This document shows, piece after piece, positions 3,101-35,860 of a stretch of 64,000 bases of DNA. Under the pieces are notes generated by a model. The model did no database searches, had not been told where the DNA came from, and worked only from the letters and a program-made list of their open reading frames with translations. How positions within the stretch are numbered: position 1 is the first letter of the stretch; the number at the start of each line of letters is the position of its first letter. This DNA comes from Pristiophorus japonicus (Eukaryota): NCBI RefSeq assembly GCF_044704955.1, contig NC_091985.1, positions 89,156,001 to 89,220,000 of the forward strand, written 5' to 3'. A program made the translations under genes and the position numbers.

Positions 3101-3318
3101 CAGCGGCCATTGATCGTGTTGACCCGCTGTACACCGGTGTCCCGGGTACTGTCCCCACCATCTTCTGGTCCGCTTTCCGACCCATCCGATTCGTATACCA
3201 GCCGAGCTGCCGTTTTTTTGCACATGTGGGCCAAATGCCCTGTATATTCACAATTTCTGCAAACAGCTTGCTGAAATCGACATCCCTTGCTGACTGCCCA
3301 CCCCCACACCCCCAGCAC
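133..3318 (-). pseudogene. pol: pol of element 1 (PR-RT-RNaseH-IN), disrupted by stops and frameshifts
   Basis: ORF pieces 2263-3318, 1105-2217, 678-866, 430-1098 and 133-324 carry the successive domains. Confidence 0.9.
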
Positions 3319-4106
3319 AGACCTGTTCCATTGTTCAAAGAGTTTCCAAAGAATGAGCTGCGTCTGGCTGATCTCTCTTGAGCTTCTCTCAGTTTGTAGT
3401 TGATTGCTCTCATTGTGGGTTGATGAGGTGTGAACGGCCGTTCCTGTGGCCCTTGATGGCTTCTGCCTGCAGTCGAGAGCCTGTTCTCCCGGTTTTGTCT
3501 GTGTGTCGGGGTAGCAGCTTGTTTAGTGCTGTGATCTTCTTCTTCCGATATTTCGTTAGTTGTTGTACCTGCATTGTAAATCAACCTCGTTTCTTCTTCC
3601 CCTACCAAGAATGTCTGTGCAACCAGTGCTGCTGCCTCTAAGGTCAGGTTCTTGGTCTCTATGAGCTTTCGGAATATGCCTGCGTGGCCTATTCCTTCAA
3701 TGAAAAAGTCTCTCAGCATTTCTCTCCTCAGTTCATCGGAGAACTCACATAAACTAGCCAACCTCCGAAGTTTCGCCACGAAGTCGGGTATGCTCTGGCC
3801 CACACAGCGTCTGTCATTGTAGAACCTGTGTCTGGCCATGTGTCGGCTGCTCACTGGCTTCAGGTGGTCGCTTACCAGTGTGCTCAATTCTTCAAACGAC
3901 TTGCTTGCTGGTTTCTCGGGTGCCAACAGATCCTTCATTAAAGCGTATGTTTTTGAACCACAGCTGGTCAAGAGATGGACTTTTCTCTTGTCTGCCTTAT
4001 CTTCGCCTAACCAGTGTTTGGTTACAAAGCTTTGCTGGAGCCTTTCTATAAAGACCTCCCAATTGTCTCCCGCATTGTACTTTTCATCTGATCCGTTGTT
4101 CGCCAT
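3075..4106 (-). pseudogene. gag: gag of element 1; frameshift in the Zn-knuckle region (C-rich tract about 3297-3313) separates it from pol
   Basis: Typical Mag-like Gag (WEVFIERL, ARHRFY, LRDFFIEGI). The CCHC knuckle continues in the next frame (CRNCEYTGHLAHMC). Confidence 0.88.
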
Positions 4107-4141
4107 TCTGTGGATTCTGTAATCCCTTAACTCGTCACCAC

Positions 4142-4389
4142 TGTAAAGTCCTGTCCCCTCAGTACAGATTCACACGAGGCATGTAGTGAAGTCAAGGTCA
4201 CTCTGGACCTGCACCTTTATTTCACAGCTCTGGAATGCTGCACTTGCCTGAGACCTGCCCTTATAAACCTGTCTCTTGCAAGTGCACCCCTGGTGGTAAG
4301 GTATGCTGATGGTTACAGGTCATATCTTATTACAGTCATGTATAGCATGTTGGGATACAGTTATATATAATAATGTAAGATACATGACA
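4142..4389 (-). repeat. 5' LTR of Gypsy element 1 (248 bp)
   Basis: Minus strand TGTCATG...CTTTACA with TATA-like TTTATAA and AATAAA; followed after 1 nt by PBS TGGTGACGAG (4140-4131). Confidence 0.88.
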
Positions 4390-5856: not shown

Positions 5857-6070
5857 TGTTATGTATTTAACCCTTTGTAACTTGCATTACACCTGACCAC
5901 CAGAGGGCCTACCTGTTGGAGTCCCAAGGGATACCAGCATCCTTTGGGAGCATTGTATATAAGCAGGCCACCCACGAGGTACCTGCACTCTGGAACCTAA
6001 TAAAGGAGCTAAGGTCACACTTGCGCATTACACACCGTACTCAGTCTCACCATTTATTATGAGCATAACA
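5857..6070 (+). repeat. 5' LTR of element 2
   Basis: Direct repeat of 13376-13589 (11 substitutions counted by eye); TATATAA and AATAAA present. Confidence 0.96.
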
Positions 6071-8403
6071 ATTGGCGATGAGGTAATGAACAACCGCGCG
6101 GAAATGCAAAGAACAGTCGGTATCCTGGAGAAGTTCTCAGAAGGGGACGATTGGGAGGCCTTCGTGGACAGACTCGACCAATACTTCATGGCCAACAAGA
6201 TGGAAGGGGACAAGAACACAACCAAACGAAGGGCGATCCTCCGAACTGTCTGTGGGACAACAACCTATGGCCTCATGAAGAATCTCCTAGCCTCGGCTAA
6301 ACCAACAGAGAAATCCTACGAAGAATTGTGTATGCTGGTCCGGGAGCAGCTAAATCCTAAGAAAAGCGTTTTGATGGCGAGATATCGGTTCTACACGTGT
6401 CAACGATCGGAGGGCCAGGAAGTGGCGAGCTATGTCGCCGAACTAAGACATTGTGAGTCTGAGTGATTCCTCGAACAAATGCTCAGAGACTTTTTTGTAC
6501 TGGGCATCGGGCATGAGACAATCCTTCGCAAACTGTTGACTGTAGAAACTCCAAATCTGAGTAAAGCCATAACGATAGCCCAGGCATTTATGTCCACCAG
6601 CGACAACACCAAGCAGATTTCGCAGAACAAAGAAGTTTCAGCCAGTACTGTGCATAAAGTAACTTTGGTTTTGAGCAGAAATGTACATGGCAGTATGTAC
6701 ACACTGGCTGCTGTGGCCCGACCTCAATTGACCCAGAGTCCACCATCATCGATTAATGCGAGGCAGTTAACACCCTGTTGGCGCTGCGGAGGTGATCATT
6801 GGCCCCATCAATGCCACTTTACACACTATGCGTACAATGGTTGCAGAACAATGGGACACCTCCAACGAATGTGCAGACAAGCTGCAAACCCTGCAAACCA
6901 CCAAGTTGCAGAGGAACATCGATCCACAGTGGATCAGACTGAGTTGGAAACTCATATGGAGGAGGCAGAAGTGTACGGGGTATATACATTCATGACGAAA
7001 TGCCCACCAATAATGTTGAAAGTTGAACTGAACAACAGTCCAGTATCTATGGAGCTGGACACGGGGGCAAGTCAGTCCATAATGAGTAAAAAGGCATTTG
7101 ACAGGCTGTGGGGAAAGAAGGCACACAGGCCCAAGCTCAGCCCCATTTACACAAAACTAAGGACTTGCACCAAGGAACTAATCCCTGTAATTGGCAGTGC
7201 TGAAGTCAAAGTCTCCTATGACGGAGCAGTACACGAACTCCTGCTGTGGATTGTGCCAGGGGATGGCCTCACGTTGTTTGGCAGAAGCTGGCTGGGGAAA
7301 ATCCGCTGGAACTGGGACGACATCTGAGCGCTCTCGTCCGTCAACAACGCCCCATGTACCCAGGTTTAAAGCAAGTTCCCATTGTTCTTCGAGCCAGGCA
7401 TTGGAAGCTTCTCGGGGGCGAAAGTGCAGATCCATTTGGTTCCCAGTACACGACCCATCCACCACAAGGCTTGGGCAGTACCGTACATGATGCGTGAAAA
7501 AGTGGAAATTGAGCTGGACAGGCTGCAACGTGAAGGCATCATCACGCTGGTGGAATTCAACGACTGGGCCGGTCTGATTGTCCCGGTACTCAAGGAGGAC
7601 GGTACGGTTAGAATTTGCGGGGACTTTAAATAACGATTAACCGTTTTTCGCTGCAGGACCAGTATCCGCTACCCAAGGCAGACGACCTATTTGTAACCCT
7701 GACTGGAGGGAAGACGTTCACCAAGCTGGACCTGACCTCGTCCTACATGACGCAAGAGCTGGAGGAGTCTTCGAAAGACCTCACCTGCATCAACACACAC
7801 AATGCGCACTGTTTATCTACAACCGGTGCCCGTTCGGGATTGGGTCGGCCGCGGCAATCTTCCAGCGGAACATGGAGAGCCTGCTAAAGTCAGTTCCTTG
7901 CACAGTGGTCTTCCAGGACAACATATTGGTTACAGGTCGGGACACCATGGAGCACTTGAAGAATCTGGAGCAGGTTCTTAGTCAGTTGGATCGCGTGGGG
8001 CTCAGGTTGAAATGCTCGAAGTGTGTTTTCCTGGCACAGGACGTCAAATTCTGAGGAAGGAGAATCGCAGCAGATGGCATCAGACCCACGGACGCCAAGA
8101 CGGAGGCCATCAAGAACGCGCCGCGACCACAGAACGTGATGGAGCTGCGGTCGTTCCTGAGACTCCTTAACTATTTTGGTATTTTCCTACCTGGGTTAAG
8201 CACCCTGCTAGAACCCCTACATGCGGAGACGACTGGGTATGGGGAAATTCACAAGCCGCTGCCTTTAAGAAAGCCAGAAATTTATTGTGTTCTAACAAAC
8301 TGCTTGTCCAGTATAATCCATGTAAACGATTAGTGTTAGCTTGCGATGCGTCGTCATATGGGGTCGGGTGTGTGTTACAACAGGCTATTGATTCGGGGAT
8401 TTT

Positions 8404-11400
8404 AGAACATAAGAACATAAGAATTAGGAACAGGAGTAGGCCATCTAGCCCCTCGAGCCTGCTCTGCCATTCAATAAGATCATGGCTGATCTGGTCGTGG
8501 ACTCAGCTCCACTTACCCGCCCTCTCCCCGTAACCCTTAATTCCCTTATTGCTTAAAAATCTATCTATCTTTGACTTGAAAACATTCAATGAGCCAGCCT
8601 CAACTGCTTCCTTGGGCAGAGAATTCCACAGATTCACCACCCTCTGGGAGAAGAAATTCTTTCTCAACTCGGTTTTAAATTGGCTCCTCCATATTTTGAG
8701 GCTGTGCCCCCTAGTTCTAGTCTCCCCCACCAATAGAAACAACCTCTCTGCCTCTATCTTGTCTATCCCTTTCATGATTTTAAATGTTTCTATAAGATCA
8801 CCCCTCATCCTTCTGAACTCCAAGGAGTAAAGACCCAGTCTACTCAATCTATCATCATAAGTTAACCCCTTCATTTCTCGAATCAGCCTAGTGAATCATC
8901 TCTGTACCCCTTCCAAAGCTAGTATATCCTTCCTTAAGTAAGGTGACCAAAACTGCACGCAGTACTCCAAGTGCGGCCTTACCAATACCTTATACAGTTG
9001 CAGCAACACCTCCCTGCTTTTGTACTCCATCCCTTTCGCAATGAAGGCTAACATTCCATTTGCCTTCCTGATCACCTGCTGCACCTGCAAACCAACCTTT
9101 TGGGATTAATGCACAAGGACCCCCAGGTCCCTCTGCACCACAGCATGTTGTAATTTCTCCCCATTCAAATAATATTCCCTTTTACTGTTTTTTTTCCCAA
9201 GGTGGATGACCTCACACTTTCCGACATTGTATTCCATCTGCCAAACCCTAGCCCATTCGCTTAACCTATCCAAATCTCCTTGTAGCCTCTCTGAGTCCTC
9301 TACACAACCCGCTTTCCCACTAATCTTAGTGTCATCTGCAAATTTTGTTGCACTACACTCTGTCCTCTCCTCTAGGTCATCTATGTATATTGTAAACAGT
9401 TGTGGTCCCAGCACTGATCCCTGTGGCACACCACTAACCACTGATTTCCAACCAGAAAAGGACCCATTTATCCCGACTCTCTGCTTTCTGTTCGCCAGCC
9501 AATTCTCTATCCATGCTAATACATTTCCTCTGACTCAACGTACCTCTATCTTCTGCAGTAACCTTTTGTGTGGCACCTTATCGAATGCCTTTTGGAAATC
9601 TAAATACACCACATCCATCGGTACACCTCTATCCACCATGCTCGTTATATCCTCAAAGAATTCCAGTAAGTTAGTTAAACATGATTTCCCTTTCATGAAC
9701 CCATGCTGCGTCTGCTTGATTGCACTATTCCCATCTAGATGTCCCGCTATTTCTTCCTTAATGATAGTTTCAAGCATTTTCCCCACTACAGATGTTAAAC
9801 TAACCGGCCTATAGTTACTTGCCTTTTGCCTGCCCCCTTTTTTAAACAGAGGCGTTACATTAGCTGCTCTCCAATCCGCTGGTACCTCCCCAGAGTCCGG
9901 AGAATTTTGGTAGATTATAACGAATGCATCTGCTATAACTTCCGCCATCTCTTTTAATACCCTGGGATGCATTTCATCAGGACCAGGGGACTTGTCTACC
10001 TTCAATCCCATTAGTCTGTCCAGCACTACCTCCCTAGTGATAGTGATCATCTCAAGGTCCTCCCTTCCCACATTCCTATGACCAGCAATTTTTGGCATGG
10101 TTTTTGTGTCTTCCACTGTGAAGACGGAAGCAAAATAATTGTTTAAGGTCTCAGCCATTTCCACATTTCCCATTATTAAATCCCCCTTTTCATCTTCTAA
10201 GGGACCAACATTTACTTTAGTCACTCTTTTCCGTTTTATATATCTGTAAAAGCTTTTACTATCTGTTTTTATGTTTTGCGCAAGTTTACCTTCGTAATCT
10301 ATCTTCCCTTTCTTTATTGCTTTTTTAGTCGTTCTTTGCTGTTGCTTAAAATCTTCCCAATCCTCTAGTTTCCCACTAACCTTGGTCACCTTATACGCAT
10401 TGGTCTTTGATTTGATACTTTCCTTTATTTCCTTGGTTATCCACGGCTGGTTATCTCTTCTCTTGCCGCCCTTCTTTTTCACTGGAATATATTTTTGTTG
10501 CGCATTATGAAAGAGCTCCTTAAAAGTCCTCCACTGTTCCTCAATTGTGCCACCGTTTAGTCCTTGTTTCCAGTCTACTTTAGCCAACTCTGCCCTCATA
10601 CCACTGTAGTCCCCTTTGTTTAAGCATAGTACGCTCATTTCTGACACAACTTCCTCATCCTCAATCTGTATTACAAATTCAACCATATTGTGATCACTCA
10701 TTCCGAGAGGATCTTTTACGAGGAGATCGTTTATTTTTCCTGTCTCGTTACACAGGACCAGATCCAAAATGGCTTGCTCCCTTGTAGGCTCTTTTACATA
10801 CTGTTCTAAGAAACAATCCCGTATGCATTCTATGAATTCCTCCTCCAGGCTACCCCCTGCGATTTGATTTGACCAATCGATATGTAGGTTAAAATCCCCC
10901 ATAACTACTGCCGTACCTTTTTCACATGCCTCCATTATTCCCTTGATTATTGCCCGCCCCACCATGAAGTTATTATTTGGGGGCCTATAAACTACGCCGA
11001 CCAGTGACTTTTTCCCCTTACTATCTCTAATCTCCACCCACAATGATTCAACATTTTGTTCATTGGAGCCAATATCATCCCTCACAACTGCCCTGATATC
11101 ATCCCTTATTAACAGAGCTACCCCACCTCCCTTCCCTTCCTGCCTATCTTTCCGAATCGTCAGTTACCCCTGTACGTTTAATTCCCAGTCCTGGCCACCT
11201 TGCAACCATGTTTCTGTAATGGTCACCAAATCATACCCATTTGTAATGATTTGTGCCGTCAACTCATTTACTTTATTTCTAATGCTACGTGCATTTAGGT
11301 AGAGTGTTTTCATCCTAGTTTTTAAACCATGATTTTTAGTTTTTACCCCTCCTGCAGCCCTTTTATATTCAGTGGCCCTTTTTGTTTCTTGCCTTTGGTT

Positions 11401-11627: not shown

Positions 11628-13375
11628 ATTTTGCAACCATTGCGTATGCATCCAAGAGTTTGTCCAAGGCCGAAAGGGCCTACAGCATGGTTGAAAAAGT
11701 GTCTCTGGCGTGTGTTTATGGGGTAAAAAAAAATGCACTGGTAATTATTTGGCCTCAAGTTCAAGCTTGAAACTGACCACAAGCCGCTCATATCGCTGTT
11801 CTCTGAGAGCAAAGGGATTAATACCAATGCCTCTGCCTGCATCCAAAAATGGGCGCTCATGCTGTCGGCATACAATTATGTAATCCACCACAGATCGGGC
11901 ACAGAGAACTGCGCAGATGCTCTCAGTCGGCTACCATTGCCCACCACTGGGGTGGAAATGACACAGCCAGCGGACTTGCTCATGGTCATGGAGGCATTTG
12001 AGAACGAGAAGTCCCCCATTACGCCAGATCAGGACTTGGACCAGCCAGGATTATTTACTGACCTTGGTAAAAAACTGTGTTCTCTATGGGAGCTGGTCCA
12101 GTGTCCCAGTGGAGATGCAGGAAGCGATTAAGCCGTTCCACAGATGCAAAGATGAGTTGTCCCTGCAGGCAGACTGTCTTTTGTGGGGCAATTGCGTGGT
12201 CTTGCCCAAGAAAGGCAGAGACACATTCATTTGCGAACTGCACAACACCCACCCAGTCATCGTAATGATGAAAGCCACAGCCAGATCTCGCGTGTGGTGG
12301 CCTGGCATCGACTCAGATTTAGAGTCATGCGTGCTCCAGTGCAACACTTGCTCTCAGTAGAGCAATGCACCCAGAGAGGCACTGCTAAGTTTGTGGTCGT
12401 GACCATCCAAACCGTGGTCAAGGATCCATGTTGACTATGCGGGCCCATTCCGAGGCAAAATGTTTTTGGTTGTCGTGGATTCTTACTCAAAATGGATTGA
12501 ATGTGCAATAATGTCTGTAAGCACATCCATGGCCATCATTGAAAGCCTACGACCCATGTTTGCCACGCACGGCTTGCCCGATGTCCTAGTCAGTGACAAT
12601 GGGCCGTGCTTCACCAGTTCAAGGAATTCATGACCCGCAACGGGATCAAACATGTCACATCTGCCCCGTTCAAGCCCGCATCCAACGGCCAGGCAGAACG
12701 GGCAGTTCAGACCATCAAGCATAGCTTGAAATGTGTGTCGGAAGGCTCCCTGCAGACCCAGTTGTCCCGAGTGCTGTTCAGCTACCGCACCAGACCCCAC
12801 TCACTCACCGGGATTCCCTCAGCTGAGCTGCTCATGAAAAGGCTGCTTAAAACAAGGCTCTCTTTTGTCCACCCTGATCTCCATGATCACGTGGAGGGCA
12901 AGCCGCATCAACAAAGTATGTACCATGACCGCGCAAATTTGTCACGCGATTTTGAGATCAATGATCCTGTGTTTGTGCTCAATTATGGACATGGTCCCAA
13001 ATGGCTCGCTGGCATGGCCACAGCCAAAGAGGGGACTAGGATGTTTCAGGTCAAACTGACCAATGGACAAACCCACAGAAAACATTTGGACCAAATCAAA
13101 TTGCAGTTCACCAACAGCTACGAACAACCCGAAGAGGATACCACTAACTTTGACCTTCCAACACACACACAAGTGGCAACTGACATCACGGTTGACCACG
13201 AATCCGAACTCATCATCCCCAGCAGCCTGACAAGGCCAGCTGCCCAACAGCCCAGTGAAGAACTGACCAACCCACCCACACCAGCATTTGTACCAAGACG
13301 ATCGACAAGGGAACGCAAAGCCCCAGATCGTCTCACCTTGTAAATAAGTGTACTGTTGACTTCACGGGGGAATGA

Positions 13376-13589
13376 TGTTATGTATTTAACCCTTTGTAAC
13401 TTGCATTACACCTGACCACCAGAGGGCCCACCTGTTGGAGTCCCAAGGGATCCCAGCATCCCTTGGGAGCACAGTATATAAGCAGGTCACCCACGAGGTA
13501 CCTGCACTCTGGAACCTAATAAAGGAGCTAAGGTCACACTTGCTCACTGCACACAGTACTCAGTCTCACCCTTTATTATGAGCATAACA
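13376..13589 (+). repeat. 3' LTR of element 2
   Basis: Preceded by PPT, followed by TSD GTGAC. Confidence 0.96.
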
Positions 13590-13942
13590 GTGACCACAAA
13601 ATAGTTAGGTTCAGTAGACAAGGATAATGAAGAGTGAAAAATAAAAGTATTGGACTGGAAAAAAGGCAAAATTTAACGAAGTAAGAAGGAATCTGGCCCC
13701 CATTAACTGGGCATAAAAGTTAGCAAATTTATCAATCGACCAGTAGTGGGAAATCTTTAAGTATGAGATAAAGTACAAAATAAATATATTCCTATTAGGT
13801 GAAGAATGGATGCATCAAACTATAAAGTTCCATGAATAAGTAGAGTAAAATTAAACTGAAATTCTTAAGGAAGATTTATGATCAAATTATGGCTAACAAT
13901 ACCAAAGATAATCATAAGGAATGTATAAAGTGGAGTAAAGAA

Positions 13943-15658: not shown

Positions 15659-16272
15659 TGGCTAGAATTTCCTATGGCTTACCGCCCGGTTTCTGGACGG
15701 TATTGGCCATTGTGGGCGCTAATCAGGTAAGCGGAAAATTCCCTACCTGAGTTACGCCGGCGGTTTTGAGGTACCGCTGAGGAGCAGACTGCCGGCGTGC
15801 ACTATCCTGAGATCGCTCTGGCACAATATTTGGGCCAGCGGTGACCCGCAGTTGAGTATGAAAAAAACTGCCCACGAGGATCAGCGGACCTGGCCAGTAG
15901 GTGAGCAGCTCTTCAAGAAAAAGGTTAGTAATTGGTTTTTTACTAATTATTTTTTAAATCTGTTCTTATTTAGTTTAAAAGGGCCTTGGGAAGGTTTTTT
16001 TGATTTTTAGGTGATGTTTTTTTTGAAAAATTATTTTATTGTTTTTCTGCTGCTAGGCCCAACCTACAGCCTCAGGGTAAATTTTTATCGATTTTTTTAT
16101 TTATCGCTCATTTTGTTTAGGAACCGGCCAACTGACCTTAAATTGCACTTTTTCACTCGGCGGATATTTTTATTTTTTGGGAGGGAAGTTTTCGCCAGTG
16201 ATAATCATCCCAATCTTAGCAGTCTTTTGGGCAGCAATCGGGCGCTGGCGGGCTGATAGAAACTTCTAGCCC
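15659..16272. mobile_element. Harbinger-like MITE (GGGCTAGAA TIR family)
   Basis: TIRs (t)GGCTAGAATTTCCTAT / rc GGGCTAGAAGTTTCTAT; 3-bp TSD ACT; CR1 sequence resumes on both sides. Confidence 0.8.
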
Positions 16273-16394
16273 ACTGAAAGATGTGGATGAACAGAGAGAG
16301 AATAAGGTTCAACTGTATAATTCTCTGAAAGTGTGAGTTCAGATAAATAAAGCCATAAAAACACCCAATTATATTTGGGTTTTATCGAGGCATG

Positions 16395-19300
16395 GGGCTA
16401 GAACCTCCACTTTTTTTGCATGCTTAACGCCCACTTAACGCCCATTTTACCGCTGAAATGATATATAACGGCCATATAGCGCCCATTTTGGCACAGAATG
16501 GAAACTGACGGGCTGTTTTAGGAGACTTATCGCCGAGCATTACTTTCCCCATGTGCTTAACGGCGGGAAAAAATATTACCGCCTGCCCACTTTTTGGGGG
16601 CGGAATCAGCAGAATGGGCGAAATCAACACCCATACTTCCTGCGTGGAATTAACGCCGAGATTCAATATGAACTCCCACCCACTGATTTTGTCGTAAAGA
16701 GCATATTTACCCAAACTAGCGGCCATGGAGATCGCCCATAGTCAATTTCACGACCTCGCACGCATATCGGCCAGAATATCGCTCGCTCAAAATATTGCCC
16801 ACAAAAGTGAAACTAACCGGAACGAACGCCAGCGGTGTGGCTGGCATTTGTTAAATCCCACTCTTACGTGAGGAGCTGATATCTGAAAGATTTGTTTGAA
16901 AGAGCGCTGATGTGAGTGACAACGCTGACACACTGCTGTGTGTGTGCAGCTCAGATATCAATGGTGCCCATTACCTTAGTGCCAGTTAAAGTTTACGTTG
17001 ATTGATGTTAAGTTTTATTTAACACTTTCATGGTAAGGAATCACCAGTGTGTAATGGTCCAGCTATCTGAGACAATGCGCAACAAGGTTATGTTCAATGA
17101 CAAAAGTTTAATACCAACATTGGTCTGAAATCATAAGTGCAACAGCCAATAGCACCCAACCCTCGCCCACACCCCACTTTTCACACCATTGACATAAATC
17201 ACATGTTCAACATGTCCAGCAATGCAGAATACAAAGGCAAAGCAGGAGTGTGGTCCCCAGCCCCCATACATTGCAACAAATTGCATACACCCAGATGGAG
17301 ATATAACACAACCATCACCTGCGCACATGCACCTCACTTTCCTTCCCCCCTCTCCTTCTTCTCCCCACCTCTACACCTTCCCCTCCTTGCTCCACTTCGC
17401 CTGGCCGAGGAGCTCCTCAGGTGGTGCCTCATTGGGGGGGATGAAGGCAGATGTGGTGGTCGCACGGGTATGAGAGCGGGGGGTGCCGAGGGGGCAACAT
17501 TCTCTAATGCAGAAGCAGGATCTTGGTCCTTGCTCTCATCTGTCATTGGTGCGGAACCTAGGGGTGGAGTGCCGCGCTCGGGGACCACTGGGAGGCCTCT
17601 GGCAGCCGTGTTCCTGGCTATCGCATCCAGGGCCTCCGCCATGCATTGGAATGTACACGGTCATGGTGGCCAGCTGTCGGGATATGCCCCCCAATGCTTC
17701 GATGAGCCGGTCACCAATGTCTACAGTCCTCCTGGATACCTGTACCATCTCTCCGCTGTCATATCGTGCTTGTGGAACAGACCTGCCGCGTCCATGAAAC
17801 CTCCGCGGGGTCGGCGCCGTCCTGGGGACAAATGTGGTTCCCTGTGGAGAGGTGCTTCCAGAGTGGAGACGGGAATGACCGGAGGACCACTAGATGACCT
17901 TGGGGTGGAATGACTTCTGGAGCGTGGCGATGCAGGTTCTTCGAAGTCCACGCTCTCATCCGTCGAGAACAGACCCAGCGGATTGACGGGCGAGAATCGG
18001 AGTTCCTCAACACCAGATGTAGTAGGATCATCTGCCGACTCCTGCCCCATGCCCTCACCTTCTGGCCTCTGTGGTCTTGCCTGGAGCCGCGCTGCTGGCT
18101 GAGCTGCAAAACACAAATGAGGTTATTAGAGGAGAAGCGGGTGCTAGGGTGACAAGTGCTACACACAGCATATACACGACAAAAGCACCACCGCTCTCAA
18201 AATTACCACAGATATCACATTTCATGACCATCAACACATTGTGCATTGCAATGATTTTCATTAGGCCAGCATTGTTTCTATGACACTTTTAGAAATTATC
18301 TATCATATATGATTGTTCGGTTATGAGTTGGTGTGGCATCTATAGACGTTATATGACGCAATGGTGTAAGCTTTACTCACGTGGCATCACTTCAGAGTCT
18401 GCAGATGAATCTGTGGCTGTCCGTGGGCACCTCACCACGAGTGCGAGCACTCGCTCCTCCATCTCAGTGATGTTGCTGGGGACTGGTGGCCCCTCACCCG
18501 TTCACCTCTGCACGGACTTCATCGTCAATAGCTTCTTCTGTAAAAGGTGACAGGACAACATGGCATGAGATCATTGTGTGATATCATTGCTAGGTACTGT
18601 CACAGAGACTGATACAACACATAACCGACATATGTAATCATGATTATTATGATTATTATCATTCTTTACCTAAAGACGTACACCATGACCGCAGGCTTTG
18701 AGTAAAACATTCCCAGTAAAAATGCAAGACCTCACATCTGCTGATAGTCACTCGTGACTGTTACAAATCAAATTATATAAATTCATAAATACATGTAAAT
18801 CAATATAATACTCTTGCGGATCCCACAAGATCGTTCCATCGTTTGCAGCATTGGTTGCCCTCACACACCTCATTGGTCGCCGACGAGACCACCTCTGCTA
18901 TCTCAGTCCATATCCTCTGGTAGGCCTTTAGGGTGGGCTTCCCACGCCCTCCCTGTGTCAAATCACTCCAGCGTAACTCGACCTCCTGCAGGAGGGAGGC
19001 ATTTGCCTCGTCCGAGAACCTCCTGGCTCTTTTGCGGCCTCCAATGTGCTCCTCTCCCACCTCACTGCTCTCCCCAGCGTCAGATTCCACATCGGCTGTG
19101 ATGCCTCCTCCTCTCTCTCCATTATAGGGCAAATTCGGTCAAATATGTGGCTGGTAACAGCTCATTTTTGTTTGCCTACTTGCTGTGAAGCTCTAAAGTC
19201 TCCCTCCTTCCTCCCAAAGCAGCCATACCACACCCAGACACGCCTTCAGTCCCTCTGAGCTCCCTTTCTGTCTCCTCTTCTGCGCATGTCATGGAGACCC

Positions 19301-19559
19301 TTGACCTCCAGAATCACAGGAATCGAGCGTTGCCATGTCATTGTTAAGGACGGCTACACTTTACGGCAGAAGGTCAAAAAAAATTTAACGCTACCGCCTA
19401 TTTAGTATCGCTCACAGTAACTCCCATTTTCAAAAATGTAAACTAGGTGTTTTGGGAATGGGCGAGAAGCCGGCGATCTGAAAACCCCTTTTTTTAATGC
19501 CCACGCTGGAAATAACGCCCATTTTTAGGCGATAAGCACAAAAGTGGAAGTTCTAGCCC
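16395..19559 (-). mobile_element. PIF/Harbinger-like DNA transposon carrying only a Myb/SANT-like gene
   Basis: About 24-bp TIRs GGGCTAGAAC(C/T)TCCACTTTT..GC, flanks ATG/ATA, subterminal TAACGCCC repeats, internal three-exon Myb-like gene. Confidence 0.88.
17334..19122 (-). pseudogene. Harbinger Myb/SANT-like (trihelix) DNA-binding protein, three exons (about 19122-18812, 18537-18381, 18103-17334)
   Basis: RKRARRFSDEANASLLQEV...IWTEIAEVVS...QCCKRWNDL; GT-AG introns with matching phases 0 and 1; exon 2 reads KKLL..R*TGEGPP..TEMEERVL. One TGA (18504-18502) and frameshifts. Confidence 0.85.
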
Positions 19560-20199
19560 ATAGAGTAAAAAAGTCAAATAATGATAAATGTATACAACAT
19601 TTTGATTGGGGTACTGTGTGCAGTTCTGGGCATCCATGGTATAAAGGAACTTAAAGCCATTGAGAGTATACAATATAGCTTCACCAGGATGATGCCACGG
19701 ATGGAGCAGAGAATAGTAGTACTTCCACAGGAGCACAGTAGGCTATCAGGATATTTCTTAGTGGTTTGTAAAATCATGTAGAGCTTTAATGGAGTCAATT
19801 GGGTAAAACTCTGGTTTTGGTGTCAGTGACAAAGGTCATCAATTTAAAATATCACTCCCAATAGCACTAAGAGAGAGGTTACGCACATAAATGGGGTTTC
19901 CAAAATTGCTCCATGACCTCCCCCAACCTTATGTCTGAAATCTAACCTGTCCTCCACCTCTGGCCCTTTGTGCATCCTCCCTTCCTTTCATCAGTACCTT
20001 CAACCCCCTCAGCCCTACTCTCACTCCGTAACCACTATGGCTCTTCATTTCTCTCTCCATCTTTAAAAGCTTTTACCATATTTTTCTGCGTTACAATCAT
20101 TACCTCACTTCAAAACTAATTCTTTGGCTGTGCAATACACTGGGACATCTTGAGGCTGTGAAATATGCTATTTAAATGAATGTTCTTCCTTTAACATTG

Positions 20200-22159: not shown

Positions 22160-22505
22160 GCACATGGCTAAGTGACAGGAAACAGAAAGTAGTGCTGAAA
22201 GGTTGTTTTTCGGACTGTAGGAAGGTATACAGCAGTGTTCCCCAGTGGTCGGTACTAGGAGCACTGCTTTTCTTAATATATAATAATGACTTGGACTTGG
22301 GAGTACAGGGCACAGTTTCAAAATTTGCAGATGACACAAAACTTGGAATTATAGTGAACAGTGAGGAGTAGAGTGATAGACTTCAAGAGAACATAGACAA
22401 GCTGATGGAATGGGCAGACACGTGGCAGATGAAATTAATGCAGAAAACTGTGAAGTGATACATTTTGGTAGGAAGAATGAGGAGGAGCAATATAAACTAA
22501 AGGGT
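22160..22505 (+). mobile_element. CR1 RT fragment
   Basis: WLSDRKQKVV...VPQWSVLG...SKFADDTKLG. Confidence 0.85.
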
Positions 22506-25380
22506 ATGATGTCAGGCTAACTGGTCTATAATTACCCGTTTTCTCACTCCCTTCTTTTTTAAAAAGTGGTGTTACATTAGCTATCCTCCAGTCCATAGAA
22601 ACTGATCCAGAGTCAATAGACTGTTGGAAAATGATCACCAATGCATCCACTATTTCTCGGGCCACTTCCATAAGTACTCTGGGATGCAGACGATCAGGCC
22701 CCGGGGATTTATCGGCCTTCAATCCCATCAATTTCCCTAACACAATTTCCTCCTTCTCACTAGACCCACTGTCCCCTAGGACATTTGGAAGGTTATTTGT
22801 GTCTTCCTTCGTGAAGACAGAACCGAAGTATTTGTTCAATTGATCTGCCATTTCTTTGTTCCACATTATAAATTCACCTGAATCCGACTGCAAGGGACCT
22901 ACATTTGTCTTCACTAATCTTTTTCTCTTCACATATTTATAGAAGCTTTTGCAGTCAGTTTTTATGCTCCCTGCAAGCTTCCTCTCGTACTCTATTTTCC
23001 CCCTTGTCCTCCTCTGTTGAATTCTAAATTTCTACCAGTCCTCAGGTTTGTTACTTTTTCTAGCCAATTTCTATGCCTCTTCCTTGGTTTTAACATTATC
23101 CTTAATTTCCCTTGTTAGCCACGGTTGAACCACCTTCCCCGTTTTATTTTTACTACAGACAGGGATGTACAATTGCTGAAGTTCATCCATGTGATCTTTA
23201 AATGTTTGCCATTGCTTATCCACCGTCAACCTTTTAAGTATCATTCGCCAGTCTATTCTAGCCAATTCATGCCTCATACCGTCGAAGTTACCTTTCCTTA
23301 AGTTCAGGACCCTAGTTTCCAAATTAACTGTGTCATTCTCCATCTTAATAAAGAATTCTACAAAATTATGGTCAGTCTTCCCCAAGGGGCCTCGCACAAT
23401 AAGATTGCTAATTAGTCCCTTCTCATTACACATCACCCAGTCTAGGATGGCCAGCTCTCTGCTAGGTTCCTCGACATATTGGTCTCGAAAACCATCCCTA
23501 ATAAACTCCAGGAAATCCTCCTCCACCGCATTGCTACCAGTTTGGTTAGCCCAATCAATATGTAGATTAAAGTCACCCATGATAACTGCTGTACCTTTAT
23601 TGCACACATCCCTTATTTCTTGTTTGATGCTGTCCCCAACCTCACCACTACTATTTGGTGGTCTGTACACAATTCCCACTAGCGTTTTTTGCCCCTTGGT
23701 ATTCCGTAGCTCCATCCATACCGATTCCACATCATTCAGGCTAATGTCCCTCCTTACTATTGCATTAATTTCCTCTTTAACCAGTAACACCACCCCACCT
23801 CCTTTTCCTCTCTAAATGCTGAATACCCCTGGATGTTGAGTTCCCAGCCTTGGTCACCCTGGAGCCATGTCTCTGTGATGCCAATTACATCATATCCGTT
23901 AACTGCTATCTGCGCAGTTAATTCGTCCACCTTATACCGAATACTCCTCGCATTGAGGCACAGAGTCTTCAGGTTGTCTTTTTAACACACTTTGCCCCTT
24001 TAGAATTTTGCTGTAATGTGGCCCTTTTTGTTTTTTGCCTTGAGTTTCTCTGCTCTCCACTTTTACTATTCTCCTTTCTATCTTTTGCTTCTGCCTCCAT
24101 TTTATTTTCCTCTGTCTCCCTGCATAGGTTCCCATCCCCCTGCCATGTTAGTTTAACCCCTCCCCAACAGCACTAGAAAACACTCCCCTGAGAACATTGG
24201 TTCCAGTCCTGCCCAGGTGCAGACCGTCCAGTTTGTACTGGCCCCACCTCCCCCAGAACCGGTTCCAATGTCCCAGGAATTTGAATCCCTCCCTTTTGCA
24301 CCACTTCTCAAGCCACGTATTCATCTGGGCTATCCTGCAATTCCTACTCTGACTAGCACGTGGCACTGGTAGCAATCCTGAGATTACTACTTTTCAGGTC
24401 CTACTTTTTAAATTTAGCTCCTAGCTCCCTAAATTCGTCTTGTAGGACCTCATCCCATTTTTTACCTATATCGTTGGTACCTATGTGCACCACGACAACT
24501 GGCTGTTCACCCTCCCTTTTCAGAATGTCCTGCACCCGCTCCGAGACATCCTTGACCCTTGCATCCTGGGGTCCCGGTTGCAGCTGCAGAAATGCCTATC
24601 TATTCCCCTTACAATCGAATCCCCTACCACTATCGCTCTCCCACTGTTTTTCCTATCCTCCTGTGCAGCAGAGCCACCCACGGTGCCATGAACTTGGCTG
24701 CTGCTGCCCTCCCCTGATGAGTCATCCCCCTCAACAGTACCCAAAAGCGGTGTATCTGCTTTGCAGGGGTGTGATCGCAGGGGACTCCTGCACTACCTTC
24801 CTGTTGGTCACCCATTTACTATCTGGCTGTATACCCTTTACCTGCGGTAAGACCAACTCACTAAACGTGCTATTCACGTCATTCTCAGCATCGTGGATGC
24901 TCCAGAGTGAATCCACCCGCAGCTCCAGTGCCGCAATGCGGTCCGTCAGGAGCTGGAGGCGGATGCACTTCCCACATAGTACAGGAGGAGCATATGAACT
25001 CATTGAATGGCGGTGCAGGCTAGAAGGGCCGAATGGCCTACTCCTGCACCTATTTTCTATGTTTCTATGTTTCTATAACACGTGTCCGAGCTGCCCTGCC
25101 ATGACTTAACCCTTAGATTAACTTAATTTGGCAACAACAATGCTAAATGTTACTTACTGATATAGAAAAGAAAAAGAAAAACTACTCCCCAATCACCAGC
25201 CAATCACTTACCCCCTTGGCTGTGACGTCACCTTTCCATTTCTTTCTACTTTTTTTTTGCCTTCTCTCCCCACTGCAGCTGCACCGGCTGGGCCTTTATA
25301 GAGGCCTCACCAACGCCCCGAACTCCTGCTGCCGCTGGGCCTTTAAAGGCCGCTCCACACACCTTGAACTCCCGCCTCAT
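22506..25380 (-). mobile_element. CR1 LINE 5' half (5' UTR, ORF1 with Zn finger/leucine zipper and SGNH esterase, ORF2 EN to start of RT)
   Basis: CGKCIRLQLLTDRIAALE, AIVVGDSIVRG, DGLHL; EN GIVYRPPN / GDFN; NYRPVSLTS. Confidence 0.9.
24994..25076 (+). mobile_element. Tiny CR1 3' tail inserted antisense into CR1 ORF1
   Basis: GAATGGCGGTGCAGGCT.GAAGGGCCGAATGGCCTACTCCTGCACC followed by (TTCTATGT)n. Confidence 0.8.
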
Positions 25381-27570
25381 GAGCCAAAGCCAGCTCACTC
25401 CTATCACTCTGCTGGAGAGCAACTTGCTGAATATCAGTGATGCATTGTAAAGCCAAGGATGAGATATCTGCCATCCTGTTTAAGGCAGCAGACATCTCCA
25501 GCACGGCCGTTGTCATGGCCTGTATAGACTCATTTGAGAGTCTGCTCGAAGCTCCATGGCAGACATTTTCACAATTATCTACAGCACCAATCCACTACTG
25601 TTGGGAGTTGGACTCCTCCATCCTCTCCACTATTGTGAAAGAGTGTGCGTGGTACATCTCAGTATCTCGCAAATTTGCTGCTGTACCTCTATCATTCTCC
25701 TCTCAACGATGGCCCCCATGGTTCAACATCTGAGTCCAGCTATGCAGAGCTTGGAGAGGATTGTGCCCCCCGACATGGACTCTCTCTCCACAGTTGTCCC
25801 TGCCACCAGTGTCTGCACGTGCACACTTGTGAATTGTGAATCACCCATCGAAAATTCCAACTAACTCTCTAACTGCACCCACTAAAATCTGCACACATTG
25901 TGATGGTACACACTCGTAAGGAATGAGGTCCTCTGAGGAAAATCGTTGTCATGCATGTCTACAGACTCTTACTCTATGCGTGAAGGCCCTGGAAGACAAA
26001 AGAAAGGGATATCAATTAGTCCTGACAAAGGACCGATCTTGACAATCGCCATACTCAGGCCATTCATAGTTGAGCTATTGATGAAAAAAATCAGCATGTG
26101 TGTCGGAGATATTTATAATTCCCAGTCTCTCTATCTCCAATTGACCGGGACACAGATGTGCCACTTTTCTCCATGGTCTCCTCGTCTGCATCTGTGAGCT
26201 GCACAATTTGAGGTGGGCCACCGCCAATCCTCTCCCTCTCCCTTGCGTTTTGTGCTCTCTTATCTAATCCGCATATAAACCCCACCCCCCCCCCCCATCC
26301 CATTTCGGGACCCACATTTGCATTAATGTTGGGGCCATTGCTAGGGACTTCCACTGATATTGTGGAAAAGCAGTTTCACCCTAGCAACTGAAATTGCAGC
26401 CCAGTATCATTACTACACGAGTGCATGTGCCTTTTTAATTCGTGCAGGTAACAGATTTCACTTAATATTTAACTTTTTCCGAATCCAAAGGAAATTAGTC
26501 GTTTTCTACGTAATGCAGATATGTTTCGGAACCATTAGATAAGTCAGTTTGCAGCTGTGGCTTGTGTCTGGAGCAATTTTATTTCAAGGTTTAATTTGTT
26601 GAGAGGTTTATTCTATACAAATTTTAATATCAGCAGAATGCTAATAAGTTTGAATGGCATCTTAATATCCTTTCTTGTAATTTGACAAAGTTAACCAGTT
26701 AACTGAACATTGATTCCAAAATACATTGTTCAAACATAACTAAGCTGAATTAATTACTTTCTGTATATTTCTTGTAATTTAATGTTACCTAGAATTTTCA
26801 ATTGCATAATTTACTGATTTTATTTGAGCTGTCATTATATGAGATTGGGACAGTTCATCGGAAATCAAAGCCTTTCATTCCAAATATTCAAATTGTATCT
26901 GATACAGCCAAGAACGAAACGACCAAATGATATAATAGTTTTGTGCAAAGGTTATCTTGGTACGCCGAAACCAGTCAATGAAACCTTGCATCAGCTTTTC
27001 AATAAGGACAAGACATGAAACAAAGCGAATCAAATTAGTCGTAATAAATTGATCCCAAAACATAACTGTAATATCTGTAGTACTGGTAATGTCTGCCTGC
27101 TTCCCGACTTCATATTCAAATGTTTAGAAAGTCACAAGCTACACAACAAATTATTGTTCTTCTAGGTCACCTTTTGATCAAATGATTATAACGAAGCTGC
27201 TGATTGTTGTGGCAGGCCGTTAGTACGATGCTGCCATGCCTTAGTATTTATTAGCCAATAATTAAAGGTCCATAACCATTCAAGCAGATGATGTAGAACT
27301 ACAAATAGGGTGTAAAGAAATATTGCTATACTAATTATCTCATGTACAGATTTTATTGGGTGACGTTATTATTGATAAGCTGACTCCTAATTGGAATTCA
27401 GTCTAGTGTAAAGTGGGCACTCAGTATCATCCATAGTTGATTACAAATGCAATTGGAAAAAAAAAATTATTAAAGAGGGCATCATTTTAAATAATTCTGC
27501 AATGAATCGTGCTTGCAGCAGCTGTCTTTGTTAGCTTGCTGGTATGTTTTAAAATAAGACCAGGAGACAG

Positions 27571-29102: not shown

Positions 29103-30545
29103 ATCATAGAAACAAAGAAAATAGGTGCAGGAGTAGGTCATTTGGCCCTTCGAGTCTGCACCGCCATTCAATGAGTTCATGGTTGAACATGCAACTTCAG
29201 TACCCCATTCCTGTTTTCTCGCCATACCCCTTGATCCCCCTAGTAGTAAGGACTACATCTAACTCCTTTTTGAATATATTTAGTGAATTGGCCTCAACAA
29301 CTTTCTGTGGTAGAGAATTCCACAGGTTCACCACTCTGGGTGAAAAAGTTTCTCCTCATCTCGGTCCTAAATGGCTTACCCCTTATCCTTAGACTGTGAT
29401 CCCTGGTTCTGGACTTCCCCAACATTGGGAACATTCTTCCTGCATCTAACCTGTCTAAACCCATCAGAATTTTAAACGTTTCTATGAGATCCCTTCTCAT
29501 TCTTCTGAACTCCAGTGAATACAAGCCCAGTTGATCCAGTCTTTCTTGATATGTCAGTCCCGCCATCCCGGGAATCAGTCTGGTGAACCTTCGCTGCACT
29601 CCCTCAATAGCAAGAGTGTCCTTCCTCAAGTTAGGAGACCAAAACTGTACACAATATTCCAGGTGTGGCCTCACCAAGGCCCTGTACAACTGTAGTAACA
29701 CCTCCCTGCCCCTGTACTCAAATCCCCTCGCTATGAAGGCCAACATGCCATTTGCTTTCTTAACCGCCTGCTGTACCTGCATGCCAACCTTCAATGACTG
29801 ATGTACCATGACACCCAGGTCTCGTTGCACCTCCCCTTTTCCTAATCTGAAAGCATTCAGATAATCGTCTGTCTCTCTTTTTACCACCAAAGTGGATAAC
29901 CTCACATTTATCCACATTATTCTGCATCTGCCATGCATTTGCCCACTCACCTAACCTATCCAAGTCACTCTGCAGCCTCATAGCATCCTCCTCGCAGCTC
30001 ACACTGCCACCCAACTTAGTGTCATCCACAAATTTGGAGATACTACATTTAATCCCCTCGTCTAAATCATTAATGTACAATGTAAACAGCTGGGGCCCCA
30101 GCACAGAACCTTGCGGTACCCAGCACTAGTCACTGCCTGCCATTCTGAAAAGTACCCATTTACTCCTACTCTTTGCTTCCTGTCTGCCAACCAGTTCTCA
30201 ATCCACGTCAGCACACTACCCCCAATCCCATGTGCTTTAACTTTGCACATTAATCTCTTGTGTGGGACCTTGTCGAAAGCCTTCTGAAAGTCCAAATACA
30301 CCACATCAACTGGTTCTCCCTTGTCCACTCTACTGGAAACATCCTCAAAAAATTCCAGAAGATTTGTCAAGCGTGATTTCCCTTTCACAAATCCATGCTG
30401 ACTTGGACCTATCATGTCAGCTCTTTCCAAATGCGCTGCTATGACATCCTTAATAATTGATTCCATCATTTTACCCACTACTGATGTCAGGCTGACCAGT
30501 CTATAATTCCCTGTTTTCTCTCTCCCTCCTTTTTTAAAAAGTGTC
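29103..30545 (-). mobile_element. 5'-truncated CR1 LINE
   Basis: RT motifs ([36 protein letters not shown]) and (TTCTATG)-type tail. Confidence 0.93.
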
Positions 30546-31336
30546 ACCTCATTGGAACAACCTATCTTACTACTGACAGATCACATCTGTCATCTCAAAC
30601 TCACCTACCATCTATTACGTTAGCATTGGTGCCCTCAAAACTATCTCACTTTGGTCCTCAAAATCCCACCACGATCAGCCCCAATACCAGCAGCACCAGA
30701 CACACCAGCAGCACCAACAACAACATCAAGTTTCTCCGCAATCAACTGATGCTGCACAGGACACAGGACATCAGCACCCGAGCACATTACTGTCCGGGAC
30801 GCCAGGGATGGCCTCACCATGGCCAGATTTACTTCACTTGATACTGTACACCCTGACTGCCACATGATGTGCCAGGCTGGCATCACCCCACATCATCTCT
30901 AGAAAGCATCCCCTGCGATGACCAAGCCATTTCTTTCACATCATCACCATTGTGGGGGTTACCGATATGTCTCATCATTCACTGCAACTCACTAAACCAC
31001 TTCCAAAGGTGCACACAAAGCTGTTCAACAATGCAAGGGTGTTGAAAATAAAGATTTCAATGTTTGACAGAAAATTAACAGAAACTTTACATGAATATTG
31101 GCTTTAGACCCAAGTGCCTACCCTTGTGTGTTGTTAGTTGGTATGATTGAACTAGGATGAGGGTGAGTGTGAGGGGTGGCTCGTGAGATGGGGAAGTGAT
31201 AATGTAGATAGAGGGATGGGTGGAGTTACAAAGTAAGTTGGTGTGAGTAAGGATGTGCAGGAGTAGGGTAGGGAAGGCAGAGTGATGGGGATGTGATGAG
31301 TGACACAGCAGGATGAGATTGAGTGTGGCTTTGCAG

Positions 31337-33474: not shown

Positions 33475-34093
33475 ACCCAGAATTTGCAGTCGGAGGCTTC
33501 CCGCGGGCGGATGCCTCCAACCGCAACAATTTCTACGAAAGTATCTGTTGTTCCCGGAGTTTCGGAGACTTCTGGTCCTGGGCCTCCATGCGAAGGCCTG
33601 CATAGAGGCTCATGTATCCCAGCAACCTATGCACTTCGTTCACATCACTGGGATCAGGTGGGCCAGCCCAACTCTCTCATAAGTATGAATGGGAATACTC
33701 CTCCAAAACACACAAGCACTTAAGATAATTTTTTTGAAAAATCACATTTAAAATTAATCAAAATGGAATTTAATTATTGAAAACAAAAATGTATTTAATT
33801 TTTTTTTTACATATTTTAAAGGGTCTAAAAATAAATTTAACCTTATTTAAAAGGATTTTAAATGTTTAAATTATTGAAAAAAGTTTATTATTCTGTGTTT
33901 TAAAAGTCTTACGCTGATAAAAGCAGGCCTTACGCCTCTCTACCCACGGAGGCCCTTCAGTTTTGGAGGCAGGCGACCGTTTGACAGATCACAAGTTCCG
34001 GATCACTTCGTATGCCTAAACCCAGAACCTGTGGGGCCCCTATGGGCACGTGTGCACCTCGTACGCACCCGTGGGGTGCGTGAATTCAGGCCC
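33475..34093. mobile_element. Probable degenerate non-autonomous DNA transposon
   Basis: CpG-rich ends, AT-rich core, TIR-like GACCCAGAATTT / rc GGGCCTGAATTC. Confidence 0.4.
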
Positions 34094-34137
34094 AATCTGG
34101 ACAATATCCTGGACCAGAATTTGGGAGCTCACCAGTG

Positions 34138-35860
34138 GGAGGCTGCGGGCGGGGGGGAGAGAGAGGCAGCGGGCGAGGGAGAGAGAGGCAGCGGGCGAGG
34201 GAGAGAGAGGCAGCGGGCGGAGAGAGAGGCTGCAGGCGAGGGAGAGAGAGAGGCAGCGGGCGAAGGAGAGAGAGGCAGCGGGCGAAGGAGAGAGAGGCAG
34301 CGGGCGGAGAGAGAGGCTGCAGGCGGAGAGAGAGGCTGCAGGCGAGGGAGAGAGAGAGGCAGCGGGCGAGGGAGAGAGAGGCTGCGGGCGAGGGAGAGAG
34401 AGAGGCAGCGGGCGAGGGAGAGAGAGGCAGCGGGCGAGGGAGAGAGAGGCTGCGGGCGAGGGAGAGAGAGGCAGCGGGCGAGGGAGAGAGAGGCTGCGGG
34501 CGAGGGAGAGAGAGGCAGCGGGCGAGGGAGAGAGAGGCTGCGGGCGAGGGAGAGAGAGGCTGCGGGCGAGGGAGAGAGAGAGGCAGCGGGCGAGGGAGAG
34601 AGAGGCTGCGGGCGAGGGAGAGAGAGAGGCAGCGGGCGAGGGAGAGAGAGGCAGCGGGCGAGGGAGAGAGAGGCAGCGGGCGAGGGAGAGAGAGGCAGCG
34701 GGCGAGGGAGAGAGAGGCTGCGGGCGAGGGAGAGAGAGAGGCAGCGGGCGAGGGAGAGAGAGGCTGCGGGCGAGGGAGAGAGAGGCAGCGGGCGAGGGAG
34801 AGAAAAGCAGCGGGCGGAGAGAGAGGCTGCAGGCGAGGGAGAGAGAGAGGCAGCGGGCGAGGGAGAGAGAGGCTGCGGGCGAGGGAGAGAGAGGCTGCGG
34901 GCGAGGGAGAGAAAGGCAGCGGGCGGGAGGGAGAGAGAGGCAGCGGGCGGGGGGAGAGAAAAGCAGCGGGCGAGGGAGAGAAAGGCAGCGGGCGGGAGGG
35001 AGAGTGAGGCTGCAGGCGAGGGAGAGAGAGGCAGCGGGCGAGGGAGAGAAAGGCAGCGGGGGGGAGAGAGAGGCAGCGGGCGAGGGAGAGAAAGGCAGCG
35101 GGCGGGAGGGAGAGAGAGGCTGCAGGCGAGGGAGAGAGAGGCAGCGGGCGAGGGAGAGAAAGGTAGCGGGCGGGAGGGAGAGAGAGGCAGCGGGCGGGGG
35201 GAGAGAGAGGCAGCGGGCGAGGGAGAGAAAGGCAGCGGGAGGGAGAGAGAGGCAGCGGGCGAGGGAGAGAAAGGCAGCGGGGGGGAGAGAGAGGCAGCGG
35301 GTGGGGGGAGAGAGAGGCAGCGGGCGAGGGAGAGAAAGGCAGCGGGAGGGAGAGAGAGGCAGCGGGCGAGGGAGAGAAAGGCAGCGGGGGGGAGAGAGAG
35401 GCAGCGGGTGGGGGGAGAGAGAGGCAGCGGGTGGGGGGAGAGAGAGGCAGCGGGCGAGGGAGAGAAAGGCAGCGGGGGGGGGAGAGAGGCAGCGGGCGGG
35501 GGGAGAGAGAGGCAGCGGGCGAGGGAGAGAAAGGCAGCGGGGGGGGGAGAGAGGCAGCGGGCGGGGGGAGAGAGAGGCAGCGGGCGAGGGAGAGAAAGGC
35601 AGCGGGAGGGAGAGAGAGGCAGCGGGCGAGGGAGAGAAAGGCAGCGGGGGGGAGAGAGAGGCAGCGGGTGGGGGGAGAGAGAGGCAGCGGGCGAGGGAGA
35701 GAAAGGCAGCGGGGGGGGGAGAGAGGCAGCGGGCGGGGGGAGAGAGAGGCGGCGCGCGAGGGAGAGAAAGGCAGCGGGCGGGGGGGAGAGAGAGGTTGCA
35801 GGCGGGGGGGGAGAGAGAGGCAGCGGGGGGGAGAGAGAGGCAGCGGGTGGCAGAGAGAGA
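34138..35860 (+). repeat. Minisatellite, about 22-bp unit GGC(A/T)GCGGGCGAGGGAGAGAGA (roughly 75-80 copies)
   Basis: Directly visible tandem array with unit variants. Confidence 0.97.

Follow-up and report, generated by a model that had tools for sequence, protein, structure and literature searches.

A Myb-only Harbinger family of Pristiophorus japonicus and its putative transposase-only partner

The element analysed here occupies positions 16395-19559 (3,165 bp) of a 64,000-nucleotide window of the Pristiophorus japonicus genome (contig NC_091985.1, positions 89,156,001 to 89,220,000 of the forward strand). It is a copy of a Harbinger-type transposon family, B, that carries a Myb/SANT-like gene, retains the last 12 codons of a transposase gene and shares its deletion with thousands of other copies. 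Family B descends from A, a two-gene family with a catalytically dead transposase. A reciprocal family, C, has a live-type transposase and no Myb domain. We consider it probable from sequence comparison that these families formed a split, mutually complementing Harbinger system, in which the C transposase and the A/B Myb protein made a working complex on both kinds of element, because B and C have the same ends, altered them in concert and occur side by side with no autonomous element in the samples.

Family B and its copy in the window

The 5.9 Gb genome was searched with a 24-mer probe across the B deletion junction, which recovers 15 of 19 known B copies. The probe gave 3,131 matches (control, 0), and when the whole element served as query, colinear copies of 84-90% identity appeared on many contigs, each with its own flanks. 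Among the first 30 junction loci, 20 run on into the Myb gene, four have lost the Myb gene too and six are truncated. Forty loci were chosen by an A/B Myb motif (7,261 genome matches); 21 were B, 11 were A, two belonged to B2, a second deletion family from A with a junction different from that of B, and six were left unassigned. The initial annotation had proposed that the element moved as a unit, a proposal to be abandoned if this copy proved to have a private deletion and all others a transposase. The copies found bear it out.

Target-site duplications (TSDs) were surveyed in 51 two-ended elements across the clade, of which 26 had a perfect 3-bp TSD and 14 a TSD with one mismatch (shuffled mean, 5.0). 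The perfect TSDs were ATG (5), CAT (5), ATA (5), TAT (3), ATT (3), TAA (2), AAT (1), TGA (1) and TTA (1), and RAGAC was favoured before the target site. These targets differ from the TWA of PIF/Harbinger elements in the narrow sense, and the CWG, TNA and ANT sites listed for other PIF/Harbinger (PHIS) groups are likewise all unlike those of this clade (PMC4482050). With its terminal inverted repeats (TIRs), 3-bp TSD and Myb/SANT-like gene, the family is nevertheless of PHIS type. It has the character of a solo-ORF (open reading frame) Harbinger, with one deletion common to a multi-copy family at distinct sites and a source Myb ORF intact in the majority sequence. It does not resemble a domesticated Harbinger gene of the HARBI1/NAIF1 or ALP1/ALP2 type, which would be single copy, intact and free of TIRs. 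The features of the window element are as follows.

16392..16394, no strand: left target-site copy (ATG); flank sequence and family TSD survey
16395..16414, plus strand: left TIR with late-type core (GGGCTAGAACCTCC...); inverted-repeat comparison and TIR series
16415..16859, plus strand: left subterminal region in which TAACGCCCA/TATCGCCCA motifs recur; repeat family D1 and motif maps
16859..16860, no strand: deletion junction common to the family, where about 1.35 kb of the A sequence is missing; alignment to A and genome junction count
16861..16899, plus strand: transposase remnant, last 12 codons and stop; frame 0 reading and alignment
16900..17333, no strand: former convergent 3' untranslated region (UTR) of both genes; alignment, ATTAAA on the minus strand at 17107-17112
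17334..18103, minus strand: exon 3 of the Myb-like gene, frameshifted in the window copy; Pro/Ser-rich linker, conserved helical segment and basic C-terminal tail
18104..18380, minus strand: intron 2, phase 1, GT-AG; family alignment and run X1 contig joins
18381..18537, minus strand: exon 2, in-frame TGA in the window copy; family alignment
18538..18811, minus strand: intron 1, phase 0, GT-AG, 4-bp deletion beside the donor in the window copy; family alignment
18812..19122, minus strand: exon 1, Myb/SANT domain, 1-bp deletion near 19095 in the window copy; Pfam PF13873
19123..19539, minus strand: 5' region of the Myb gene together with the right subterminal region, in which CGCCCA motifs occur; motif maps
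19540..19559, minus strand: right TIR; inverted-repeat comparison
19560..19562, no strand: right target-site copy (ATA, one mismatch against the left copy); flank sequence

The 3-bp flanks and the ATTAAA, a candidate poly(A) signal, had been read correctly from the window alone, as had the presence of TIRs; the repeats measure 20 nt with 95% complementarity, slightly less than the 24 bp first estimated. The space left of the gene had been described as free of any transposase-like ORF. A tblastn search of the whole window with a family transposase gave no match; the description needs correction for the last 12 codons and stop at 16861-16899, which are all that the element keeps of the DDE transposase gene expected of an autonomous element. 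The TAACGCCCA/TATCGCCCA repeats are likely Myb binding sites, a role predicted by analogy with Harbinger3_DR (PMC9710019).

The minus-strand exons 19122-18812, 18537-18381 and 18103-17334 match the family majority exactly, with GT-AG introns in phases 0 and 1, as initially annotated. Exon 1 scored 23.8 bits against Pfam PF13873 Myb_DNA-bind_5 (cut-off 21.7; E = 4.4e-5), so that the Myb/SANT assignment has the support of a profile search. In the majority sequence of 19 near-full-length B copies, from which the window copy differs at 162 of 3,161 aligned sites, the three-exon frame is open over 419 amino acids. The window copy is dead, as the initial annotation had held: against the majority it has one stop, the TGA in exon 2, and three frameshifts, namely a 1-bp deletion near 19095, a 13-bp deletion near 17857 and a 1-bp insertion near 17645. 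An in-frame 9-bp deletion near 17547 and the 4-bp deletion by the intron 1 donor were also found.

In contigs of run X1 (the kind of run is not on record), 18103 is joined to 18380-18383 with intron 2 skipped, and exon 3 letters abut 18381. This agrees with splicing in some family members and is not evidence on the window copy. The exact intron 1 join is absent from the listed run X1 contig joins. Introns of A and B differ by 2.2-2.4%, and from those of D (a two-gene family described below) by 7-9%, less than the synonymous exon sites (4% and 19-22%, respectively), values in which CpG content is uncorrected. That the window copy is an autonomous element with a deletion all its own, or its gene model a chance reading, has negligible probability: it is refuted by the 3,131 junction copies against a control of 0 and by whole-element copies with their own flanks, and contradicted by the 419-residue majority ORF, the Pfam match and the contigs joining exon 2 to exon 3.

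Other repeats lie in the same window. A 614-bp element with Harbinger-like ends (TGGCTAGAATTTCC and GAAACTTCTAGCCC) and a perfect ACT/ACT TSD occupies 15659-16272, 122 bp left of the window element; BLAST against families A-D gave no match, and it is likely a separate miniature inverted-repeat transposable element (MITE) family. A weak match to Myb exon 2 at 26157-26297 (E = 2e-4) is a piece of another Harbinger. By their motifs, we take the frames at about 1-4200, 5960-7640, 12000-13590 and 48000-50500 to be decayed pieces like those of long-terminal-repeat retrotransposons (gag, reverse transcriptase and integrase-like), and those at about 9500-11200, 22400-23800, 29300-30600 and 40900-43700 presumably to be reverse transcriptase and endonuclease pieces like those of long interspersed nuclear elements. 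A purine-rich simple repeat occupies 34000-36500.

The parent family, the transposase-only family and their shared ends

Family D has two genes in 4.6 kb, a Myb gene and a normal transposase (GAIDCTH, LGDKGY, IVEKT; motif count 1,890). Family A, the direct parent of B, is a 4.57-kb two-gene element (motif count 2,931), and B is A minus about 1.35 kb that held the transposase 5' region and all but the last 12 codons. Family C is a 3.1-kb element with a live-type transposase that lacks Myb exons 1 and 2 along with most of exon 3. Its junction has 6,505 genome matches, and the 35 C-junction loci comprise 24 with a readable transposase core, three without either gene and eight that are truncated; the Gln typical of A occurs in none of the 24 cores. 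Double-deletion recombinants, with the left half of B and the right end of C, also occur. In D and in the relatives E, F and G the two genes are convergent, as in an autonomous Harbinger. The transposases of A, C and D match Pfam PF13359; a protein search with a family transposase gave two matches only, the nearest being a sawshark 'putative nuclease HARBI1' (51%). No solved structure related by sequence to a family transposase was found.

Family C is the transposase-only element with the same TIRs that the initial annotation had predicted; a direct parent with a catalytically dead transposase had not been foreseen. The annotation's reading of a semi-autonomous, split two-component system gains support from the family-wide deletion and from the C partner, and supply in trans is what we infer from them.

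The loss of catalytic residues in A was scored at 30 loci. The first Asp position was Q in 28, a stop in one and E in one, and the Glu position was Q in 23, H in five and a stop in two; in 30 C/D loci the first position was D in 28 and the third E in 25. These are taken as catalytic residues on the strength of the Pfam DDE_Tnp_4 match, the lack of variation at these positions among live families, the D-35-E spacing and what is established about such enzymes. With two of the three DDE residues lost (D to Q and E to Q) and its frame open, the A transposase is, on its residues, catalytically dead. An AlphaFold model of a C transposase had a mean predicted local distance difference test score of 51, with the catalytic core under 50, and was not used.

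The changes in early A fell unevenly on 55 core positions that are invariant in four live reference sets: polar or glycine positions changed in seven of 28 cases and hydrophobic positions in none of 27 (Fisher p = 0.010). The residues affected were D178Q, N204K, H227D, D228E, G256R, E290Q and G294T. Late C has one change among the same 55 positions. After inactivation, A fixed about 57 more changes, plus one 6-nt deletion that keeps the frame, and neither a stop nor a frameshift is among them (P = 0.016 against the private disruption rate). The A transposase thus looks like a pseudo-enzyme with its fold kept, as far as its pattern of substitution indicates.

Two intact Harbinger transposase frames of 391 and 415 amino acids were found elsewhere, on opposite strands at about 13.83 and 13.84 Mb (L032 and L040, G000:C2). 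They are about 94% alike in DNA, their first catalytic Asp is Ala, and L032 has no Myb match in the 8 kb around the locus; they are a candidate pair of domesticated dead transposases.

Of the 129 transposase copies placed in one tree, those of C form a single clade (support 95.6) and those of A another (100); both clades are nested ladders. A second tree, built from 86 Myb-region copies, has B and B2 nested where the A ladder is latest. Family B descends from late A, and C from D. A ladder produced by recombination was considered and rejected, as shared variants are nested gene-wide rather than in blocks and only seven of 63 late-C codons match A. Nor do B and B2 form a stepwise series, with B arising through B2: early B clusters with an A copy to the exclusion of B2. 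Two independent deletions from A would fit better on this tree.

The TIR core changed in the order CTTTC, TTTTC, TTTTA, ACCTC, identically in C and along the line from A to B. The CTTTC core is that of D and of the outgroups E/F, and the later cores were never seen on the D copies sampled. At the left end, the latest C differs from B at 33 positions and from early C at 80; at the right end, C3 differs from late A at eight positions and from mid C at 19. Unlike these ends, the internal 3' UTR is lineage-specific throughout. Read on these alignments, the differences show that ends were swapped between the A/B and C lineages.

Lineage backbones measured 0.09-0.14 substitutions per site, against copy terminal lengths of 0.035-0.045 at all stages; the active A/B/C lineages changed much faster than inserted copies aged. 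From early to late C, while the TIR core changed, residues 1-60 of the transposase underwent 13 non-synonymous and two synonymous changes, and this fast N-terminus is possibly a co-adaptation to the new ends or to the A/B Myb partner. The C deletion puts the Myb start in frame with the C-terminal tail, but the frame is lost at a poly-C tract in the mid and late C majorities, which gives no support to a retained mini-protein in C.

Autonomous copies of the late phase were sought in motif samples that consisted of the first exact matches on contig C1 rather than random draws. At 30 loci with the late transposase motif (5,335 matches), 27 had the C junction, three were truncated and none ran into a Myb gene. 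The first 30 late-TIR loci (3,652 matches) were 11 B, one double deletion, four B2, eight with a live-type transposase, two A and four other; all 14 late-TIR elements with a live transposase that were followed to their right part were C. In all, no Myb gene was found on late live-transposase copies at 41 informative loci. The late TIR core combined with E/F-type subterminal sequence gave two matches, against 3,652 for the late TIR, and among the autonomous sister families E/F the late TIR did not take hold. One late-TIR element near 96.24 Mb (L394/L354, G000:C1) keeps only Myb exon 1, with the DNA-binding domain, after a longer deletion; one such copy was seen.

Selection on the retained genes and competing explanations

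Selection was examined on lineage changes counted at thresholds of 6-8 copies (our own choice), with CpG sites excluded and private insertions kept outside the disruption rate; of each of two duplicated pairs, one copy was used in the selection and ladder tests. Against the private disruption rate, the complete lack of stops and frameshifts at lineage level gave P = 0.013 for the C transposase and P = 0.008 for the A and B Myb genes together. A first test of singleton against shared variants (p < 0.01) was set aside, as recurrent transitions inflate synonymous counts, and a corrected test was used.

Several results weigh against the split, mutually complementing system. For the B Myb gene alone the frame test gave P = 0.096. 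The initial annotation had proposed a test for an intact Myb consensus with a ratio of non-synonymous to synonymous change (dN/dS) below 1; the consensus is intact, and the ratio relative to private variants was 0.72 for B (p = 0.24, not significant) and 0.87 for A and B together. It was 0.82 between the A and B Myb majorities, 1.03 for the whole C transposase and 0.68 for its residues 61-335 (p = 0.17), and a marginal 0.64 (p = 0.07) for the dead A transposase; in no gene was the corrected ratio significantly below 1. None of the 41 B copies examined has a Myb gene free of stops and frame-breaking deletions. The absence of two-gene copies among the 41 late loci is still compatible with up to about 7% of such copies, and C could have drawn Myb from the autonomous E/F, whose TIRs start alike and which carry the ATCGCCCA motif too. 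By the length of its terminal branches in the transposase tree (0.035-0.045), D cannot be told apart from late C or A. The order of D before B therefore rests on the end sequences and on the Myb-region tree, in which terminal lengths were 0.0525 for D, 0.0457 for A and 0.0394 for B.

Without both proteins a Harbinger does not transpose; the Myb-like one binds the subterminal motif and the transposase, and carries the transposase to the nucleus (PMC9710019, PMC13668399). The sequence of events that we propose begins with the waning of the live two-gene element D. The A transposase would have lost catalysis, its protein being kept for a time in a folded, non-cutting form, and would then have been deleted from A at least twice, giving B (by one 1.35-kb deletion) and B2. 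The opposite deletion produced C, with the Myb gene lost and the live transposase kept. B was likely mobilized by the C transposase, and C likely used Myb protein from A and B, each lineage supplying the subunit that the other lacked after the two-gene parent had likely stopped jumping. How genes used in trans could be selected is a matter of speculation: few unsilenced copies may be active per germline and may themselves be the preferred substrates.

B and C might instead have been passengers, ordinary internal deletions moved by autonomous two-gene D or E/F elements and carrying their genes as undecayed baggage. Live two-gene families do exist (D with its motif count of 1,890, and E, F and G), E/F have the same TIR start and subterminal motif, copy ages overlap, the dN/dS of B Myb is near 1, and elements without either gene have also spread (four of 30 B-junction loci and three of 35 C-junction loci). 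We regard this explanation as unlikely, given that B and late C left the ancestral TIR together whereas D, E and F kept it, that no live two-gene copy appeared in 41 late loci, that about 60 lineage changes per gene include no stop or frameshift, and that the catalytic residues of C were kept along its entire ladder. Dependence could also have run one way, A/B needing the C transposase while C took Myb from any source (E, F or residual D) and the B Myb served B alone. The TIR evidence ties B to the C transposase and says little about whose Myb served C; the CGCCCA motif is also present in E/F, and the A/B Myb frame was kept open. Against this, A/B-type Myb copies outnumber the D type (7,261 to 1,890), the subterminal regions of C converged on A/B and not on E/F, and a trans-acting Myb protein made by B would reach C ends too, as they carry the same motifs; one-way dependence seems quite improbable.

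A more far-reaching version of the split system is put forward tentatively, and we hold it to be rather doubtful. This Harbinger lineage would have become a true bipartite transposon, with two interdependent single-gene lineages and co-evolving ends, after the extinction of its two-gene ancestor, and the active site of A would have been selectively dismantled while the protein persisted, in frame and folded, as a subunit or regulator unable to cut. If so, the A-type mobile pseudo-transposase would be a precursor state of domesticated dead-transposase/Myb pairs, and catalytic death could precede domestication.

Comparison with known systems

The Myb-only or single-gene Harbinger layout is already known (PMC8437027, PMC13668399). 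A search of the open literature, with Repbase, subscription journals and supplements outside its scope, turned up no mobile dead-transposase Harbinger, no co-evolving ends of two single-gene lineages and no study that tested whether autonomous copies are missing; on mutual complementation it gave nothing beyond the papers cited here. The significance lies in the history of the family more than in the dead copy of the window. The genome holds a fossil record of splitting at thousands of copies, with the parent, the dead-enzyme intermediate, both halves, double-deletion recombinants and ordered ends. Three questions become testable: how selection keeps a trans-acting gene intact within one host, whether the transposase and TIRs of separate elements co-evolve, and whether a transposase without catalytic activity can be of use to a mobile element ahead of its adoption by a host.

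Domesticated dead Harbinger transposases such as the plant proteins ALP1 and ALP2 provide a counterpart to family A on the host side: the transposase fold is kept, the catalytic acids are lost and the partner is Myb-like, in single-copy host genes without TIRs. Family A differs in being mobile, with about 3,000 copies and TSDs, and in that the dead gene was later deleted.

Autonomous vertebrate Harbingers such as Harbinger3_DR have a convergent DDE_Tnp_4 transposase of about 400 amino acids and a Myb-like protein of about 420, TIRs starting with GGG, a 3-bp TSD and subterminal repeats (PMC9710019, PMC9179366). Families D, E, F and G have the same two-gene layout; B departs from it in having no transposase, C in having no Myb domain and A in having no catalytic residues.

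Harbinger-Snek of sea kraits (Laticauda) is a vertebrate Harbinger which, like the present one, has multi-copy single-gene variants of both kinds. L. colubrina has 2,263 intact transposase-only and 452 DNA-binding-only variants beside 269 full elements that are intact, and the variants are termed possibly non-autonomous deletions; the word 'purifying' is absent from the main text (PMC8437027). The full Snek element is abundant, whereas the late samples here hold no live two-gene copy. The present families also differ from Snek in their separate long-lived halves, co-evolving ends and dead-transposase stage before the Myb-only form.

In Caenorhabditis inopinata, an expansion of the MADF-only elements Harbinger-1M_cIno and Harbinger-2M_cIno is proposed to have been mobilized in trans by a DDE-only locus, a supply that the authors call hypothetical; there are 19 MADF-only and five DDE-only elements, the DDE-only type did not expand and the TSD is TWA (PMC13668399). 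The split architecture arose through internal deletion there as in P. japonicus. In the latter, each half numbers thousands of copies, TSDs are of the form ATR/YAT and the Myb-only form stems from a parent with a catalytically dead transposase.

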